The notes beneath the pieces are model-generated. The model was not told the DNA's origin. It worked only from the letters and a program-made list of their open reading frames with translations, and did no database searches. The position numbers and the translations under genes are program-made. Below, piece by piece: positions 7,252-61,654 of a stretch of 64,000 nt of DNA. The stretch is from the sequence record PQ724392.1; one strand, given 5' to 3'. This DNA comes from a phage. Position 1 is the stretch's first letter; each line of letters starts with the position of its first letter.

Positions 7252-7469
7252 AATACACGGAAGGAGGATATATGCTCAAACTATCTAGTCTAATTCAAGC
7301 CATCAAAGGCAGTCGTAAGCGAACGATTCTGGTCCTTTCGATACTCTGTTTAGTTCTACTCTGGAACTTCGTTGTTGCCCCTGTTGCATTGACACATGGT
7401 GTTATATTACCAGTCATTGCACTCGAATCGGTTGTAGATGTTTCACTGGCATTAATCGGCCTTATATAG
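7252..7469 (+). CDS. small hydrophobic protein, plus-strand
   Basis: ATG 7252 preceded by AAGGAGGA; hydrophobic 72-aa product; followed by hairpin with T-tract; CATAAATA upstream. Confidence 0.45.
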
Positions 7470-7529
7470 GTGGAACTATGTGAACATTATTCTATCAGAT
7501 TTGGAAATTAACCAGTAAGAAAGACAAGA

Positions 7530-7563
7530 AACATCATGGGCTAAAAAGTCCATGATGTTTTTC
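7530..7563. terminator. bidirectional stem-loop terminator
   Basis: 10-bp stem aacatcatgg/ccatgatgtt with T-rich flanks on both strands, between convergent plus ORF and gene 61. Confidence 0.5.
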
Positions 7564-7587
7564 TGTGGAACTTACCGGAATCCCTTC

Positions 7588-8616
7588 CTAAACTTTTGCG
7601 TACTTCGAAAGTCGCATTCTCGCCATCAACCCTTGAGCAACGTTATCGGCCATATATGATTCGATTTGTTCAGGGGTTGCGCCCTCCGATTTAACCATCT
7701 CATTTATGTCTTTCGTATGCCATGGTGCATTGTCCCAGAACATAACGGCTTCACCCGCTTCAACGAGCTTCTTCATACGTTTAATCGTATCCGGATGTCT
7801 TGGCTCGTTGTCCATTACCCATACTCGGGTTTCAGCATAAGGAACGGCTTCCAATGCTAATGTTCCACCAGTTATCGCAATGCTGTTAGGGATAAACAAA
7901 CTATCAATCGGACCTTCCATTACCCACACGCGCTTGCGCTCATCAATCTTGTCTACGCCATAGACTTTGGAAGCTTCTGGGTGAGCTTTGATTGTGATAT
8001 ATTTTTGTGGTGCATCTTTGCGAAGAGCTCGTCCTTGGAAAGATTCGATTTCTTTTTTGCCGTTGAAGATAGGAATAACCAAGCGTGGTTCATTCGTTTC
8101 ATTCTTATACGTCCCAGGATTAACGGAGTTAACTAATGCAGGCCATTTGTTTGTAAACCATAACCGGTTCCAAACATTGCTCGGAATACACCGACTTTTT
8201 ACATACTTAACTATCGGATGCGCTTCTGGTAAAGTATCGATTCTTTCGCAAAAAGCAAGCTCTTCAATAACCGGAGTTTTTTCTTGTTCTTTCGGAGCTT
8301 CTGCAACTTCATTACGTTGTCGACCGAAGGCGTTTTCCTTGTACTTCTCAACCATATATTCCCGGTGCAAATCCGGCTCAAACTCTTTTATGTATTTGCT
8401 TATATGCGTGGAGTAGTCACAGTTAAAACATTTCACGTAAACCGCACCATCAGATGGATTGGTATACGCCCAGAATCGAGCCTTGTGTGAATCTTTCTGG
8501 GAGTCACCACAAACCTTACAACGACAGTTTGCCTTAAATGTGCTCCCGGTGACTTCTCTGTAACGTGGTTGATACGATAAAGCTTTGACTGCAAATTCTC
8601 TATCAATATATGACAT
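7588..8616 (-). CDS. 61: DNA primase gp61
   Basis: 342 aa (T4 gp61 size); zinc-ribbon CRCKVCGD...CFNCDY; position between 56 and 41. Confidence 0.85.
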   Translation of the reverse strand: MSYIDREFAVKALSYQPRYREVTGSTFKANCRCKVCGDSQKDSHKARFWAYTNPSDGAVYVKCFNCDYSTHISKYIKEFEPDLHREYMVEKYKENAFGRQRNEVAEAPKEQEKTPVIEELAFCERIDTLPEAHPIVKYVKSRCIPSNVWNRLWFTNKWPALVNSVNPGTYKNETNEPRLVIPIFNGKKEIESFQGRALRKDAPQKYITIKAHPEASKVYGVDKIDERKRVWVMEGPIDSLFIPNSIAITGGTLALEAVPYAETRVWVMDNEPRHPDTIKRMKKLVEAGEAVMFWDNAPWHTKDINEMVKSEGATPEQIESYMADNVAQGLMARMRLSKYAKV

Positions 8617-55324: not shown

Positions 55325-55552
55325 TTATTTTCCTAACGAAATACGAGTAGGTTTTTTACCGAAATATTCTTCATAGGAACCATCTAAACGACCCGCTTTA
55401 GACCGACAATACGAATCATACTTTTTGTAATAAGTCAACTCGTTATTATAACGTGGATGTCTATCAGCCATAATAATACTTAATGGCCAACCTTTGGCAT
55501 AATCACGAAGACCATTTATTTTACGAATATATCTTTTCTTTAATTTTAGCAT
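55325..55552 (-). CDS. hypothetical basic protein
   Basis: 75-aa ORF co-oriented. Confidence 0.35.
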   Translation of the reverse strand: MLKLKKRYIRKINGLRDYAKGWPLSIIMADRHPRYNNELTYYKKYDSYCRSKAGRLDGSYEEYFGKKPTRISLGK

Positions 55553-55770
55553 GAGCTCGGGTGCCAGATTTTACCGTCAGGTTGAGCAACGAAGGTACGA
55601 CCAGCTTCTTCACCATAACAAGAGCTGTTCAGCCAGTCTTCAAGACGAACCTCACCATCATATTCGTCAAGCTCAATACCGAAATCTTGAGCGTTAGCCA
55701 TATCTTTTACTTTCTTATACAATGCAGCCAGTTCAAGTGCTGCTTTTTCTAATTCATTAATATCAGACAT
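55546..55770 (-). CDS. small protein, WxSSSxxC-tail family member
   Basis: 74 aa ending KIWHPSSC. Confidence 0.4.
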   Translation of the reverse strand: MSDINELEKAALELAALYKKVKDMANAQDFGIELDEYDGEVRLEDWLNSSCYGEEAGRTFVAQPDGKIWHPSSC

Positions 55771-55779
55771 TTTTATTCC

Positions 55780-55992
55780 TTAGCATTCGTAAGAGGATGA
55801 TACCCAAGAGGTACCACTAATAGTAATACAACCGTTATAAAGCGTGATATGTCGTTCTAAGTCACGAACACCATCAATGTAGATATCAGCTTCTTCGCGT
55901 TCTTCTTTACAAATCTGGATAACGTTTTCAATAGCTGCCGCGGCAGTACGGATTGCACAATCTAATTCACGAGACATATAATTCCTTAACAT
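55780..55992 (-). CDS. small protein, WxSSSxxC-tail family member
   Basis: 70 aa ending TSWVSSSYEC. Confidence 0.45.
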   Translation of the reverse strand: MLRNYMSRELDCAIRTAAAAIENVIQICKEEREEADIYIDGVRDLERHITLYNGCITISGTSWVSSSYEC

Positions 55993-56267
55993 TCAGAAGA
56001 GGAGGACACCCAACCGCCATTTTCCAGGTCAGTTGTATAGTCATGAGTGTTAACAATAGCCCATTCAGGATGGCCATGTTCTTCCCAATGGGCAAGGTCA
56101 GCTTTCAAGGCACCAGGAGAATAATAGTCACCGCCCATACCGCGAGCAGGGTATATATTAAAATGAGTCTCATATTTGTTTGCAATTTCCTCGGCACGAC
56201 GAATAGCTTTATGGATATCATTTACTGCGTTAGCCAGTTCTTTATTTTTACGGTAATCATTCATCAT
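55986..56267 (-). CDS. small protein, WxSSSxxC-tail family member
   Basis: 93 aa ending GGWVSSSSEC. Confidence 0.45.
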   Translation of the reverse strand: MMNDYRKNKELANAVNDIHKAIRRAEEIANKYETHFNIYPARGMGGDYYSPGALKADLAHWEEHGHPEWAIVNTHDYTTDLENGGWVSSSSEC

Positions 56268-56276
56268 AGCGTTTCC

Positions 56277-56567
56277 TTAGCACATTGCCGAAGAGGAGAC
56301 CCAAGCACCAACTGTAACGACACCGTTTTCAACTTCGCCGCCGTTGTTTTCAATTTCATCTTTAAACCACTGGGAGCACTCATAACCGACAGGATAATAT
56401 GTACGGCCTGAACCATAATCACCGGTACCGAATTGGATACCATATTCATCTGCGATTTCTTCACAGTGTTTTTCAATTTCAGAGGTCTTATTTAGAAGAG
56501 AATAGATAGCTTTTTCTGCAGATTTCTCATCATAATACTTGGGGATAGCAATTTCAATTTTATTCAT
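56277..56567 (-). CDS. small protein, WxSSSxxC-tail family member
   Basis: 96 aa ending GAWVSSSAMC. Confidence 0.45.
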   Translation of the reverse strand: MNKIEIAIPKYYDEKSAEKAIYSLLNKTSEIEKHCEEIADEYGIQFGTGDYGSGRTYYPVGYECSQWFKDEIENNGGEVENGVVTVGAWVSSSAMC

Positions 56568-56917
56568 GATTTACATTCCTTAATAAAGGTTTCAAGGTCA
56601 TTACGTTTTGTTTTGTCTAGGAACTTATTATACTCAGCCATTGCTGAAGCATATCTCTTCCGACTAGGAGCATTCACGGCGTTTGTGTGACAAATATCAT
56701 ACACAACCGGGATAAAATAAGCCACAACAGCCGGAGCGATTATCATAAAGAAACCCATCTCAATGGGCATGACTCCCTCGATTGCAGCCATAACCGTGGT
56801 CATTACCAGACCAACCAAACCACCGAGCATACCGGTGACAATTCCCAATAATAAATTGCCGCCAATATCATATTCAGCCAATTGATAAACATGTGATGCA
56901 AGACTAGGCCGTTCCAT
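56564..56917 (-). CDS. membrane protein, FIxEC C-terminal family
   Basis: Start moved to internal Met; hydrophobic helices; ends FIKECKS. Confidence 0.4.
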   Translation of the reverse strand: MERPSLASHVYQLAEYDIGGNLLLGIVTGMLGGLVGLVMTTVMAAIEGVMPIEMGFFMIIAPAVVAYFIPVVYDICHTNAVNAPSRKRYASAMAEYNKFLDKTKRNDLETFIKECKS

Positions 56918-57299
56918 TACGAACCTCCTTAATAAATTCTTCGGCACATTTAATTTTGTGCTCTTCTTGTAGGGAAACACATTTTTGTTCCCACTCTTTA
57001 ACTCGCCCACGATATCCTTTATTCATATGATTTTGATGCCACACATTTATCAATATCATACTCAGGACCGTAATAAAAGGAGCTGCGATTATTAGCGCCC
57101 AGGCAACTCCAACACTGATGATATCCATATCCCCACAAAGCACCATCATTATAACCCCAACGATGCACATGGACAAAGCTCCAAATGGAGGCATAAGGTC
57201 TTTATCAATCTTGTCTGCGTATACAAATTTTTCTGGTTTACTTGGCAGATATAGCGTTCGCATTTTGAACCCCTTTAGCATATTCACGACATTCAGCAA
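56904..57299 (-). CDS. membrane protein, FIxEC-like C-terminal family
   Basis: 131 aa; two hydrophobic helices; ends EEFIKEVRNGTA. Confidence 0.4.
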   Translation of the reverse strand: MLNVVNMLKGFKMRTLYLPSKPEKFVYADKIDKDLMPPFGALSMCIVGVIMMVLCGDMDIISVGVAWALIIAAPFITVLSMILINVWHQNHMNKGYRGRVKEWEQKCVSLQEEHKIKCAEEFIKEVRNGTA

Positions 57300-57810
57300 T
57301 AAAACGATTAAGCTTACGTTTCCGTTTACGACCCTCTAATGTATACTCAGCCGCCAAATCAAGAAGCTCATCTTTATCATAATTTTTAATATCAGTATAA
57401 GTTGGGCGGCGGTCAACCATTCCAAAGTGGTCACCATTTTCCAACATCAAATAACACACCAAATGGTCATCATCGTCCGCATTAATAAGCTGCTTATAAT
57501 CACTTGGTTCATTTAACGCATACACAGAATAACTCAGCCCAGCGAATTCCACTCGTTGAATACCCAGATTTACGTCAATAATTTCCAAGGCATCTGCAAA
57601 AGAAAGGTCTTCAGCTAAAGCAAAAATAAAAGGCAATTTGGTAGTATCGCCGCGACTTGTTGTTCTTCTTAAGAAATCATTGGAATAGCCCAAGTCGCGT
57701 CGGATTCTATAAAGAACTGTGTTAGTTTCAGTGGCAAGACCACTACCGCCAAACCATTCCACATTTGATAAAAGATTATCATATAAAGTCATAATTTTCT
57801 CCTCTCCCAA
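57238..57810 (-). CDS. hypothetical protein, FIxEC C-terminal family
   Basis: 190 aa; C-terminus NRFIAECREYAKGV. Confidence 0.4.
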   Translation of the reverse strand: MGEEKIMTLYDNLLSNVEWFGGSGLATETNTVLYRIRRDLGYSNDFLRRTTSRGDTTKLPFIFALAEDLSFADALEIIDVNLGIQRVEFAGLSYSVYALNEPSDYKQLINADDDDHLVCYLMLENGDHFGMVDRRPTYTDIKNYDKDELLDLAAEYTLEGRKRKRKLNRFIAECREYAKGVQNANAISAK

Positions 57811-57834
57811 TTAGGGGGCTTTGCCCCCTTTATC

Positions 57835-58428
57835 TTACTTAAGTGAATTGATGTATTCTTCAATGTCAGCGGACGTGGTATCCACACCAACCTGTGGACC
57901 TTTGAAAGTTTCAACACGCATCAAGGTGTCTTCAATATCAATCTTAGTCAATGCAGCGATTTCAACAACATCATCTGCAGTCGCAATACCCAGGGCAGAT
58001 ACCTTACGGGTTTCGCGGATGTATTCCAGTTTAACAGCTAGTTCCTGACGAGAATCATCCAGCTCTTTAACTTTCAATTTAATTTCATTACGCATTTCAA
58101 CATAATCGTCTGCCTTCTTACGAAGTTGTTTAGCAGTGCGACGATACAGGAGACCCAGTTTAGCATGGACCTGGACATCCGCGCCATCAGCAATCAGTTT
58201 GCGGATTTCACGCTCTTTTGAGGCGGCGAGTTGGTCTTTTTCATTCGCTAACTCGCGGATGCGTTTTTCTTCATTAACAGACTTAACGTGGGCGGTCTGG
58301 AGCTCAGTAATCTTGTCAATCAGGGTAGACGCCGCTTGAGTATATTGGTCTTCAATAGACAGGTTTTTTGCCATTGCAGTACCCAGTTTGGAGCGGATGA
58401 ATTCAACAAGTTTCTTTAAAGTATTCAT
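57835..58428 (-). CDS. PspA/IM30-like coiled-coil protein (tentative)
   Basis: 197 aa, predicted all-helical with long heptad-like charged repeats; resemblance to PspA is by eye only. Confidence 0.35.
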
Positions 58429-58500
58429 GGTATTTCCTTCAGTTGGTTAATGTTTTATTATCCAGGGAACATACTATCATGTTCCCATTAAAGCACTAAT

Positions 58501-58889: not shown

Positions 58890-59333
58890 TTAAATTTCAA
58901 ATTCTTTGCGGAAGTTGGAAGCATAAGACTGAACTGATGCTTTGTTGAATCCAAACTCACGCACAATCATATCAATAACAGCTCTGCGAGCAGCACCATT
59001 AGACATATTAACAGTTTTGAACATATCATAGCATAAATCTTTGTTGCTCATACCGGAGCGTTTAGGTGCCTTACGTTCAGCTTTTGGTTCAGCTTTAGGA
59101 GTAGGTTTAACTTCTGGTTTAACCTGTCCATCATTCAGACCTTTAAAAATTTTACCTGCCAGAGTTGCCAGTTTAGCAGCTTCGCCACGAGTGATACCAA
59201 ATACTGCCGGGTTAAATGAAATACCTTCAGCTGCCAGACGTTTGAAGAACATACGTGCTGCGGATTGTGCTTCAGCTTCAGAAGAGTTGTTTAATGCCAG
59301 CTTAACGTACTTAACCAGTTTTGAAGTTTTCAT
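58890..59333 (-). CDS. hypothetical protein, paralog of 59415..59840
   Basis: 147 aa; shared C-terminal block GAARRA.ID..V ... VQSYASNFRK. Confidence 0.45.
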   Translation of the reverse strand: MKTSKLVKYVKLALNNSSEAEAQSAARMFFKRLAAEGISFNPAVFGITRGEAAKLATLAGKIFKGLNDGQVKPEVKPTPKAEPKAERKAPKRSGMSNKDLCYDMFKTVNMSNGAARRAVIDMIVREFGFNKASVQSYASNFRKEFEI

Positions 59334-59403
59334 TTTATTCTCCAGTGTTTATTTGGTAACTCAGTATGGGATAATTATACACTATCCCACCTGGAAGTAA
59401 AAC
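59334..59403 (-). promoter_or_regulatory. early promoter cassette (-35 GTTTTAC, -10 TATAAT, long conserved leader)
   Basis: GTTTTAC-N17-TATAAT then TATCCCATACTGAGTTACCAAATAAACACTGGAGAATAAA. Confidence 0.5.
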
Positions 59404-59414
59404 ACTTTTCTCAA

Positions 59415-59840
59415 TTATTTTTGAGCTTTGCGGAAGTTGGAAGCATATGACTGAACAACAGTCTTTTTGATATCATGGGTGTTAACCAGAACATCAATCA
59501 GGGCGCGTCGAGCTGCACCATCTGCCATATCAATTTCTGCAAATGCCTGGAAGCAAATGTCACGAGCATTACCAGATTTAGACTGGATTTTTTCTTCTTT
59601 AACTTCTTCAATTGGGAATTCAATCATTTCAGCTTGGATTAATTCAATGATAGATTCTTTTGACTGTTTGGTGTTTACCTTCAGTTCAGAATTAAGGGAC
59701 TTAGCGATGGCAACAATCTGGGTTGAAGTCAGATGAATAAGTGCATCTTCACGAATGCAGATTTCACATACTTCGTCGGCAACCATTTTGTTAGTGATGC
59801 GGGTAACAGAGAATGCAGAAGTCAGGGTCAGGAAGTTCAT
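59415..59840 (-). CDS. hypothetical protein, paralog of 58890..59333
   Basis: Start set at ATG 59840 (MNFLTLTS...) because promoter cassette lies inside the longer ORF-track frame. Confidence 0.45.
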   Translation of the reverse strand: MNFLTLTSAFSVTRITNKMVADEVCEICIREDALIHLTSTQIVAIAKSLNSELKVNTKQSKESIIELIQAEMIEFPIEEVKEEKIQSKSGNARDICFQAFAEIDMADGAARRALIDVLVNTHDIKKTVVQSYASNFRKAQK

Positions 59841-59925
59841 TTTATTTCTCCAAAGTTTTGTTTGATTCAGTGTGTAACTCAGTATGGAATCATTATGCAT
59901 CCAGTCAATTCGGATGTACACTACT
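59841..59925 (-). promoter_or_regulatory. early promoter cassette (-35 GTGTAC, -10 CATAAT, long conserved leader)
   Basis: GTGTAC-N18-CATAAT then GATTCCATACTGAGTTACACACTGAATCAAACAAAACTTTGGAGAAATAAA. Confidence 0.5.
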
Positions 59926-59981
59926 TTTTGAAGAAAATTTCAAATTTATTCGGGGTATAAAAAAGCCCGCAATGCGGGCTG

Positions 59982-61486: not shown

Positions 61487-61563
61487 CCTCGGTAATTGGT
61501 CGGGGTGGTGGGATTCTAACCCACAACCTACGGTTTAGAAGACCGTTGCTCTATACAATTGAG
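61487..61563 (-). tRNA. tRNA-Arg (anticodon TCT), CCA encoded
   Basis: Folded by hand: acceptor CGGGGTG/CACCCCG, D-arm GCTC/GAGC, anticodon stem ACGGT/ACCGT with loop CTTCTAA, T-arm GTGGG/CCCAC, discriminator A + CCA. Confidence 0.8.
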
Positions 61564-61565
61564 CT

Positions 61566-61639
61566 ACACCCCGGGTGGCCCCATCCGGACTTGAACCGGA
61601 AACCTGCCAGTTATGAGCCGGATGCTCTAACCAATTGAG
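61566..61639 (-). tRNA. tRNA with anticodon CAT (Met or lysidine-type Ile)
   Basis: Folded by hand: acceptor GGCCCTG/TGGGGCC (two G-U), D-loop with GG, anticodon loop CTCATAA, T-arm TCCGG-TTCAAGT-CCGGA; 2-nt spacer to tRNA-Arg. Confidence 0.7.
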
Positions 61640-61654
61640 CTACAGGGCCTAAAA

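Follow-up and report, generated by a model that had tools for sequence, protein, structure and literature searches.

Gene e.6 of T4-like phages very probably encodes a diverged homolog of PspA/IM30 proteins

We report that gene e.6 of T4-like phages very probably encodes a homolog of the PspA/IM30 proteins, which places it in the ESCRT-III superfamily. The gene was studied in a 64,000-nucleotide (nt) stretch of phage DNA, sequence record PQ724392.1; this whole stretch, not the gene alone, is what we call the window. The minus strand of the window carries an open reading frame (ORF) of 197 amino acids (aa) which, judged by sequence and gene order, is the Gaprivervirus ortholog of T4 e.6. Our overall reading, which we consider rather probable, is that e.6 is a diverged phage PspA/IM30 protein acting as a membrane-sealing or membrane-remodelling polymer. 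A preliminary description of the same DNA had proposed a possible PspA/IM30-family protein and had conceded that it could simply be a generic coiled coil. The family assignment is borne out by relatives that match Pfam, by a family profile run against the sequences of the PDB, by a reciprocal match between Vipp1 and the phage family, and by profile-profile alignment with clean controls; the generic coiled coil is largely refuted by reversed and shuffled versions of the same profiles.

The e.6 gene of the window

The ORF starts with an ATG at 58428, 6-7 nt downstream of an AAGGA Shine-Dalgarno sequence, and stops with a TAA at 57837-57835. ORFs on the opposite strand across this region are short and show no feature favouring any of them as a gene. 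The protein is 75% identical to T4 e.6 (NP_049742; UniProt P39224) and is assigned to PHROG 1203 ('unknown function') with an E value of 2.4e-84 in a scan of the PHROG profiles. The gene order of T4, e.7 - e.6 - e.5 - e.4 - e.3, is kept, and the record of phage SP18 labels the same gene e.6. The window belongs to a T4-like Tevenvirinae phage of the SP18/Gaprivervirus group, with 96-99% identity across 3.5 kb to several phages of Escherichia, Shigella and Yersinia. The preliminary description, which named no strand, was therefore right to see a phage-borne gene for a 197-aa protein here: the ribosome-binding site, the synteny and the occurrence of the gene in more than 1,100 phage records confirm it, and place it on the minus strand.

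Homology to PspA and Vipp1

The connection with PspA and Vipp1 runs through diverged relatives of the window protein. In an alignment of 41 diverse family members (hereafter A2), five match the Pfam family PF04012 (PspA_IM30) when each is scanned separately. Two members from Ackermannviridae, P0074 and P0067, exceed the PF04012 gathering score of 33.9, with 39.0 bits (E 8.9e-10) and 35.1 bits (E 1.4e-8), respectively; their residues 6-146 align to positions 2-143 of the model, and the precomputed Pfam labels of the collection concur. Do these proteins belong to the same family as e.6? Both fall in PHROG 1203 (E 3.5e-65 and 1e-52), and both are matched over their full length by a profile of close homologs in a search of 1.84 billion representative proteins (E 1e-17 and 1.6e-20). 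With P0074 as query, tblastn finds T4-like e.6 directly, both as a near-identical relative of the window (E 3e-5) and as the e.6-annotated gene of Edwardsiella phage PEi20; with phmmer, P0074 alone finds no match among the PDB sequences. Alignment of profiles with hhalign joins the T4-like clade, which holds the window protein, to the distant clade of the family with a probability of 99.9% (E 9e-37). The window protein alone is joined to the Pfam-positive set P0067, P0068 and P0074 with 98.4% (E 4e-15, 192 columns), and the control for this comparison, a reversed alignment of the T4-like clade, stays below 1%. On these sequence comparisons we regard P0074 and P0067 as unambiguous homologs of the window protein.

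At the level of the whole family the similarity extends to cellular proteins. A2 aligns to a PspA plus Vipp1 template with a probability of 92.4% (E 5.2e-7) over 167 columns, from residue 1 to about residue 175. This template is shallow, comprising seven sequences of enterobacterial PspA and Synechocystis Vipp1, as a genome scan for diverse PspA returned Enterobacterales only. The alignment score of 49 compares with 19-24 for reversed and 8-16 for 30 column-shuffled profiles, controls that keep the composition and reach a probability of at most 2%; removal of the three Pfam-positive members still leaves 88.5%. When the A2 profile is searched with hmmsearch against 177,635 PDB sequences, Synechocystis Vipp1 takes the top four places (E 7.8e-5 to 4e-4), and Vipp1 or PspA account for eight of the nine best, with residues 1-146 aligned to 1-147. 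In the opposite direction, the best match of Synechocystis Vipp1 among 38,880 PHROG profiles, a set made by others, is PHROG 1203 (E 1.4e-7), with residues 1-140 placed on profile positions 1-139. The signal is graded within the family: the distant, largely Ackermannviridae clade aligns to PspA/Vipp1 with 92.9% (score 50.4 versus 15.5 reversed) and the intermediate clade with 45% (33.7 versus 15.1).

The resemblance can also be followed in single sequences. The N-termini of distant members ('MSIFQRLKSIF', 'MGILSRIKEFL', 'MGIKSFFAGIFG') recall the 'MGIFSRF' and 'MGLFDRL' of PspA/Vipp1. Placed beside Vipp1 ungapped, residues 1-80 of the window protein give 18 identities (22%); sliding the sequences by 1-14 residues gives 6.2 on average and at most 12. 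The hydrophobic or polar class agrees at 60 of the 80 positions, where the slid controls average 42 and never exceed 56. Pfam Snf7 (PF03357) is not matched by the window protein at E<=10, nor is it among the 25 most widely matched of the 192 families hit by the 41 members. By sequence, the affinity of e.6 is clearly with the PspA/Vipp1 branch and not with the Snf7 side of the superfamily.

Predicted structure

As the preliminary description had anticipated, the AlphaFold2 (AF2) models are all-helical, and they return the helix order of PspA and Vipp1 (alpha0, hairpin, alpha4, alpha5; residues in Table 1). The mean predicted local distance difference test score (pLDDT) lies between 74 and 80, reaching 79.9 with a deeper alignment, and is 88-98 in the hairpin. 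In Vipp1 and PspA a membrane-binding alpha0 (aa 1-22) is followed by the hairpin (aa 24-142), made of alpha1 and conjoined alpha2/alpha3, then by an elbow linker, alpha4, and finally alpha5, which attaches to the tip of the hairpin in a neighbouring subunit (Liu et al. 2021, PMC8281802). The helix boundaries of e.6 fall within a few residues of these, and we interpret the model as the alpha0, hairpin, alpha4 and alpha5 layout of PspA and Vipp1, the long hairpin being a hallmark of PspA, Vipp1 and ESCRT-III.

The predicted alpha0 has a hydrophobic moment of 0.44 (mean of the protein 0.27), against 0.49 in PspA and 0.61 in Vipp1. It is net positive, residues 2-19 holding four basic residues and one acidic, and its hydrophobic positions 4, 7, 10, 11, 15, 18 and 19 line up with their counterparts in Vipp1 and PspA; F10 is invariant in close homologs. 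In the hidden Markov model (HMM) alignment the tip of the hairpin sits opposite the 'NGEEN' of Vipp1. At the other end of the protein, the short C-terminal helix, in which Y192 and L196 are nearly invariant, resembles in a low-confidence alignment the end of alpha5 in Vipp1, 'SGVEDELAALKA' ('VEDELAALKA'), and in PspA, 'DAISEQLAQLKA' ('ISEQLAQLKA'). A Foldseek search of the PDB with the AF2 model places Vipp1 or PspA in all nine best positions, followed by CdvB2, and Snf7, CHMP1 and Asgard ESCRT-IIIB are found among the fold matches. In BFVD, the first match outside the e.6 family is a Megaviridae Snf7.

Distribution and annotation of the family

The gene is present in 1,111 of 50,697 phage records searched with tblastn, and 1,109 of the matches cover at least 80% of its length. 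Its carriers in Straboviridae infect Escherichia, Shigella, Klebsiella, Enterobacter, Yersinia, Aeromonas, Serratia, Erwinia, Edwardsiella and other hosts. Those in Ackermannviridae include, by their taxonomy lines, Kuttervirus and Nezavisimistyvirus, and phages of Klebsiella of about 160 kb carry it too; in the Ackermannviridae and these Klebsiella phages the homolog lies between the genes for a gp41-type helicase and DNA ligase. A scan of viral contigs with a family sub-alignment gave two loci. The search of 1.84 billion representative proteins with the close-homolog profile matched just 46 representatives, which makes e.6 a small, discrete family; every complete one measures about 200 aa and the remainder are shorter fragments, none attaining the 220 aa or more of cellular PspA. 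These observations suggest that the family is probably a compact, virus-restricted and highly diverged branch of PspA/IM30/Vipp1, of about 200 aa, belonging to Straboviridae and Ackermannviridae (Vi1-like).

How has this family been named? Homologs of e.6 are commonly labelled hypothetical or 'host specificity protein' in databases. The latter name is given to proteins identical to that of the window in Yersinia phage vB_YenM_P8 (QUL77614.1), in Escherichia phage UPEC07 and in UniRef; Klebsiella phage UPM 2146 has a relative that is labelled 'tail completion protein'. In record OL964745 the neighbouring T4 genes e.3 and e.4 are called 'sulfurtransferase'. Nothing backs the 'host specificity' and 'tail completion' names, which appear to be propagated, k-mer-like misannotations. 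In functional-genomics tables of 2022-2025 e.6 is still 'unknown' (supplements of PMC9697503 and PMC11879866). Our literature search on the function of T4 e.6 and on phage PspA homologs retrieved no description of e.6 or PHROG 1203 as PspA-like, the one related item being a brief reference to pspA-like genes of jumbo gut phages (PMC12880540).

Expression, flanking elements and neighbouring genes

In T4, e.6 RNA falls in the early class; its protein was seen by proteomics and assigned to the 'middle' class (time-resolved omics, supplement of PMC9697503). In a CRISPRi-ART screen e.6 was listed as of 'unknown function' and 'Not Fit', meaning that its knock-down carries no measurable fitness cost in the laboratory (supplement of PMC11879866). 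This dispensability fits an accessory stress function. The promoter-like site upstream of e.6 (Table 1) is not listed by a sigma-70 promoter scan; at the same place T4 has an early-promoter-like sequence, GTTTACA-17-TATTAT. The -10-like hexamer of the window site is overlapped by an 8-bp hairpin. Another hairpin, GC-rich, separates e.6 from the next gene, and T4 has one of different sequence at the same position between e.6 and e.5 (GGGGC-UUCG-GCCCC, NC_000866 about 69275-69300). As no U-run follows on the coding strand, the hairpin of the window is more likely an element of RNA stability or processing than a terminator, and in that capacity it may set the e.6:e.5 ratio.

Table 1. Features of the e.6 locus in the window
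Feature	Position	Strand	Description and basis
e.6 coding sequence	57835..58428	-	197 aa; T4 e.6 ortholog, PHROG 1203; very probably a diverged PspA/IM30-superfamily protein
Helix alpha0	58363..58425	-	Residues 2-22; cationic amphipathic, predicted equivalent of the PspA/Vipp1 membrane-binding helix; AF2, hydrophobic moment, register
Helical hairpin	57994..58356	-	Residues 25-145: alpha1 25-80, tip 81-85 'DGADV', alpha2/3 86-145; AF2 and HMM alignment
Helix alpha4	57910..57975	-	Residues 152-173, after a short linker ('elbow'); low model confidence (AF2 pLDDT about 50-78); hhalign reaches about residue 175
Short C-terminal helix	57841..57870	-	Residues 187-196; candidate truncated alpha5; AF2, low-confidence alignment
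Promoter-like site	58471..58495	-	TGCTTTA (MotA-box-like or -35), 12 nt, TAGTAT; consensus match, read directly
8-bp hairpin	58465..58486	-	GGGAACAT-GATAGT-ATGTTCCC; between upstream ORF stop and e.6 start; read directly
Intercistronic hairpin	57813..57829	-	AGGGGGC-AAA-GCCCCCT, GC-rich, e.6 to next gene; sequence
Gene in e.5 position	57238..57792	-	184 aa, ATG 57792, PHROG 8788; 3' of e.6
e.4-like and e.3-like genes	56564..57299	-	Two overlapping predicted membrane-protein genes, PHROG 2604 and PHROG 2330; next downstream

In each genome examined, a same-strand gene of 178-316 aa lies 30-60 nt 3' of e.6 (for example at 7391-7951 in locus L083 and 8661-9254 in L085, and likewise in L086-L090). 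The proteins encoded at this e.5 position are barely or not detectably similar across clades by BLASTP, and their PHROGs differ: 8788 in the window, 2607 in T4 and 11433 ('membrane protein') in an Ackermannviridae-like contig. The e.5-position protein of the window shows weak similarity to T4 e.5 and its FBB1 counterpart, with a C-terminal motif 'F-I/V-x-x-C-R-E'. Among the contigs examined, those of Ackermannviridae and related ones encode at this position a protein with a hydrophobic, transmembrane (TM)-like segment at or near its N-terminus. The gene, which evolves very fast, is a possible partner of e.6, linked to it by position. Since the e.5-position proteins can barely be aligned between clades, and the e.3-like and e.4-like proteins bear no similarity to PspB or PspC, the conserved operon partner stands as a positional observation. 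In L085, three genes 3' of e.6 look like mutual paralogs.

Further features were noted on the minus strand on either side of this locus. Four tandem small ORFs at 55546-56567 (74, 70, 93 and 96 aa) have a C-terminal motif W-(V/H)-(S/P)-S-S-x-x-C, their ends reading 'WVSSSYEC', 'GGWVSSSSEC', 'GAWVSSSAMC' and 'IWHPSSC'; they look like a tandem array of paralogs and match by position small hypothetical genes of SP18. Two adjacent ORFs, 58890-59333 (147 aa) and 59415-59921 (168 aa), have in common a domain at the C-terminus, about 50 residues in length ('...GAARRA.ID..V......K..VQSYASNFRK'). Neither gives anything significant in Pfam, and one related record names genes near 58890-59921 'rho-N domain' and 'H15 domain-containing'. 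Just upstream of the second ORF, a perfect 7-bp GC-rich hairpin (AGCCCGC-ATT-GCGGGCT, 59964-59980) with a T-run after it on the minus strand is likely an intrinsic terminator that closes the preceding minus-strand transcription unit. Adjacent genes for tRNA-Arg(TCT) and tRNA-Met(CAT), at 61497-61649, form a phage tRNA cluster; the cluster of SP18 comprises Arg, Asn and Met, so the window phage appears to be without tRNA-Asn.

Proposed function and alternative explanations

What might a PspA/IM30 protein do for a lytic phage? Membrane function is well established for the PspA/Vipp1 family (PMC8281802; summarized in PMC12234005). By analogy with PspA and Vipp1, the cationic amphipathic alpha0 of e.6 would bind the cytoplasmic leaflet of the inner membrane, and the protein would polymerize by packing of its hairpins. 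The resulting polymer would seal or remodel stressed membrane and so preserve the proton-motive force. Stress may come from DNA injection, from superinfection, and from the load of holin, antiholin, Imm and other phage membrane proteins. The Psp response of the host is dependent on sigma-54 and PspF. T4-type phages shut off host transcription (PMC9697503). That response would therefore not be inducible in the infected cell, which is why the phage may bring its own IM30 protein, supplied constitutively from early infection.

A number of results weigh against this reading. Scanned by itself, the window protein has no match to PF04012 even at E<=10 and gives in Pfam sub-threshold coiled-coil noise (GAGBD, APG6_N), and no PspA model is matched in NCBIfam. 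A profile of 27 close homologs (A1) finds no PspA among the PDB sequences, its best match being an insignificant GCN4 zipper (E 0.11). The T4-like clade aligns to PspA/Vipp1 with a probability of 4% and a score of 23.7, against 21.4 for its reversed control; we judged the direct evidence from close relatives insufficient, and as this clade alone does no better than the control, the PspA assignment rests on transitive homology via the diverged relatives. E. coli PspA itself matches the family weakly (E 1.6 with the A2 profile against the PDB) and does not match PHROG 1203; by sequence the e.6 family is nearer to the general Vipp1/PspA consensus than to the PspA of the host. In the AF2 model the alpha4-alpha5 region is poor, with pLDDT below 50 at residues 164-184, and alpha5 is much shorter than that of PspA. 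The neighbouring e.7-, e.5-, e.4- and e.3-like proteins have no Pfam match and no similarity to PspB, PspC or PspF. Finally, there is the step from homology to function: a role in membrane protection or remodelling is tentative, and we think it a little more apt to be wrong than right. The preliminary description had taken the lack of a significant profile hit to PspA/IM30/ESCRT-III as decisive against its proposal. For the single sequence such a hit is indeed missing; at the level of the family, that verdict is overturned several times independently. On this evidence the window protein is a PspA/IM30 relative by transitive homology whose own sequence has drifted far.

Could charged heptad repeats alone have produced the likeness to PspA and Vipp1? 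A generic coiled coil that resembles these proteins by convergence of composition, and serves as an unrelated scaffold or adaptor, would account for the silence of Pfam and the GCN4 match just described. It is improbable, as the signal is lost in reversed and column-shuffled profiles of the same composition. Moreover, the alignments are collinear from residue 1, with helix boundaries and hairpin tip in register. The top matches among the PDB sequences are almost only Vipp1 and PspA, the reciprocal best of Vipp1 among the PHROGs is 1203, and two members stand above the curated Pfam threshold. We find barely credible the virion, host-range or tail protein that GenBank names imply: these names stand on identical or related sequences in several records, but without a family match in Pfam, PHROG or NCBIfam. 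The early class of T4 e.6 RNA and the place of the gene, which is the early e.1-e.8 region and no late structural operon, also speak against such a role, as does a knock-down without fitness effect, and a 22-kDa all-helical hairpin is unlike known host-specificity proteins. An Rz/spanin identity, raised by an NCBIfam match to LysB (E 0.51), was set aside as weak; by eye e.6 has no obvious hydrophobic segment or lipobox, no TM scan having been run on it.

Two further explanations accept the homology and differ over its use. One, which we consider unlikely, keeps the PspA/ESCRT-III fold but has it repurposed as a regulator or decoy instead of for membrane repair. PspA binds PspF and ESCRT-III binds Vps4. 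A repurposed e.6 might accordingly bind a host AAA+ protein or the PspBC sensors, or form with the e.5-position protein a module for anti-defence or superinfection exclusion. The distance of the T4-like clade from canonical PspA suggests changed constraints, and directly 3' of e.6 in the genomes examined lies a hypervariable gene, its product bearing an N-terminal TM helix in Ackermannviridae; such rapid evolution is typical of host-interaction or arms-race genes. Early expression, and dispensability in a laboratory host poor in defences, would agree with this as well. Against it, no links to Vipp1 are better conserved than the alpha0 pattern and the hairpin, which argues that the ancestral membrane and polymer activity was kept. 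The other explanation, bolder and in our view doubtful, is that e.6 of T4-like and Vi1-like phages forms an ESCRT-III-superfamily polymer that, together with the hypervariable e.5-position protein (membrane-anchored in Ackermannviridae), actively remodels or repairs the host inner membrane. Here it is a possibility that the pair neutralizes membrane-permeabilizing effectors of abortive infection, or that it controls lysis timing or lysis inhibition. If true, this would be a viral counter-measure drawn from the same ancient machinery as the 'phage shock' response of the host.

What are the implications of a diverged PspA/IM30 protein in these phages? T4 is the best-studied lytic phage, and e.6 has been a 'conserved hypothetical protein' since its genome was sequenced. 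More than 1,100 sequenced phages, including many candidates for therapy, carry this gene; kinship with PspA and Vipp1 provides a concrete, testable hypothesis for it, and corrects the propagated 'host specificity protein' label. It would bring mainstream lytic phages of enterobacteria into the range of the PspA/ESCRT-III superfamily and put the 'phage shock protein' fold inside phages themselves, in a form of about 200 residues that could serve as a minimal model of polymer assembly. It also prompts the thought that phages silencing the transcription of their host have to replace its membrane-stress response themselves.

Comparison with known systems

Phage-encoded pspA-like genes have a precedent in the 'Jug' jumbo gut phages (PMC12880540), which we set beside e.6 by description only. 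Those genes were recognized by the annotation of the authors and lie next to terD in Bacteroides phages of 360-402 kb, whereas e.6 is annotated only as hypothetical in T4-like phages of about 170 kb, and its T4-like clade is beyond the reach of the Pfam PF04012 model. With ESCRT-III (Snf7/CHMP, archaeal CdvB and the Snf7-like proteins of giant viruses) e.6 has in common, as far as the model goes, the superfamily fold of a helical hairpin with alpha4 and alpha5. Unlike them it has no Pfam Snf7 match, and we recognized neither a MIM motif, for which no dedicated search was made, nor a Vps4 partner.

The likeness to E. coli PspA (PF04012, PDB 4WHE) is closer: it shares its Pfam family with the Ackermannviridae members of the e.6 family, has the same order of helices and a similar size (222 aa), and the hydrophobic positions of its N-terminal amphipathic helix are in register with those of e.6. 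The phage protein is about 25 residues shorter, however, its direct similarity to PspA is weak, and it is encoded outside any pspBCDE/pspF context. It is therefore not part of the Psp regulatory circuit, and nothing points to a role as a PspF-binding negative regulator. Vipp1/IM30 (Synechocystis sll0617 and Nostoc Vipp1; PDB 7O3W and 6ZVR) differs from e.6 in its length of about 260-270 aa against 197, some 70 more, and in its C-terminal extension alpha6, which e.6 lacks, as e.6 ends in an alpha5 of about 10 residues. The phage gene, known here from sequence and model, is moreover carried by a lytic phage behind a promoter-like site of early/middle type. Vipp1 is nonetheless both the best profile match and the best Foldseek match of e.6, and the two proteins have the same predicted layout: alpha0 occupies residues 1-22, the hairpin spans about 120 residues and has its tip at 81-85, and alpha4 and alpha5 follow.

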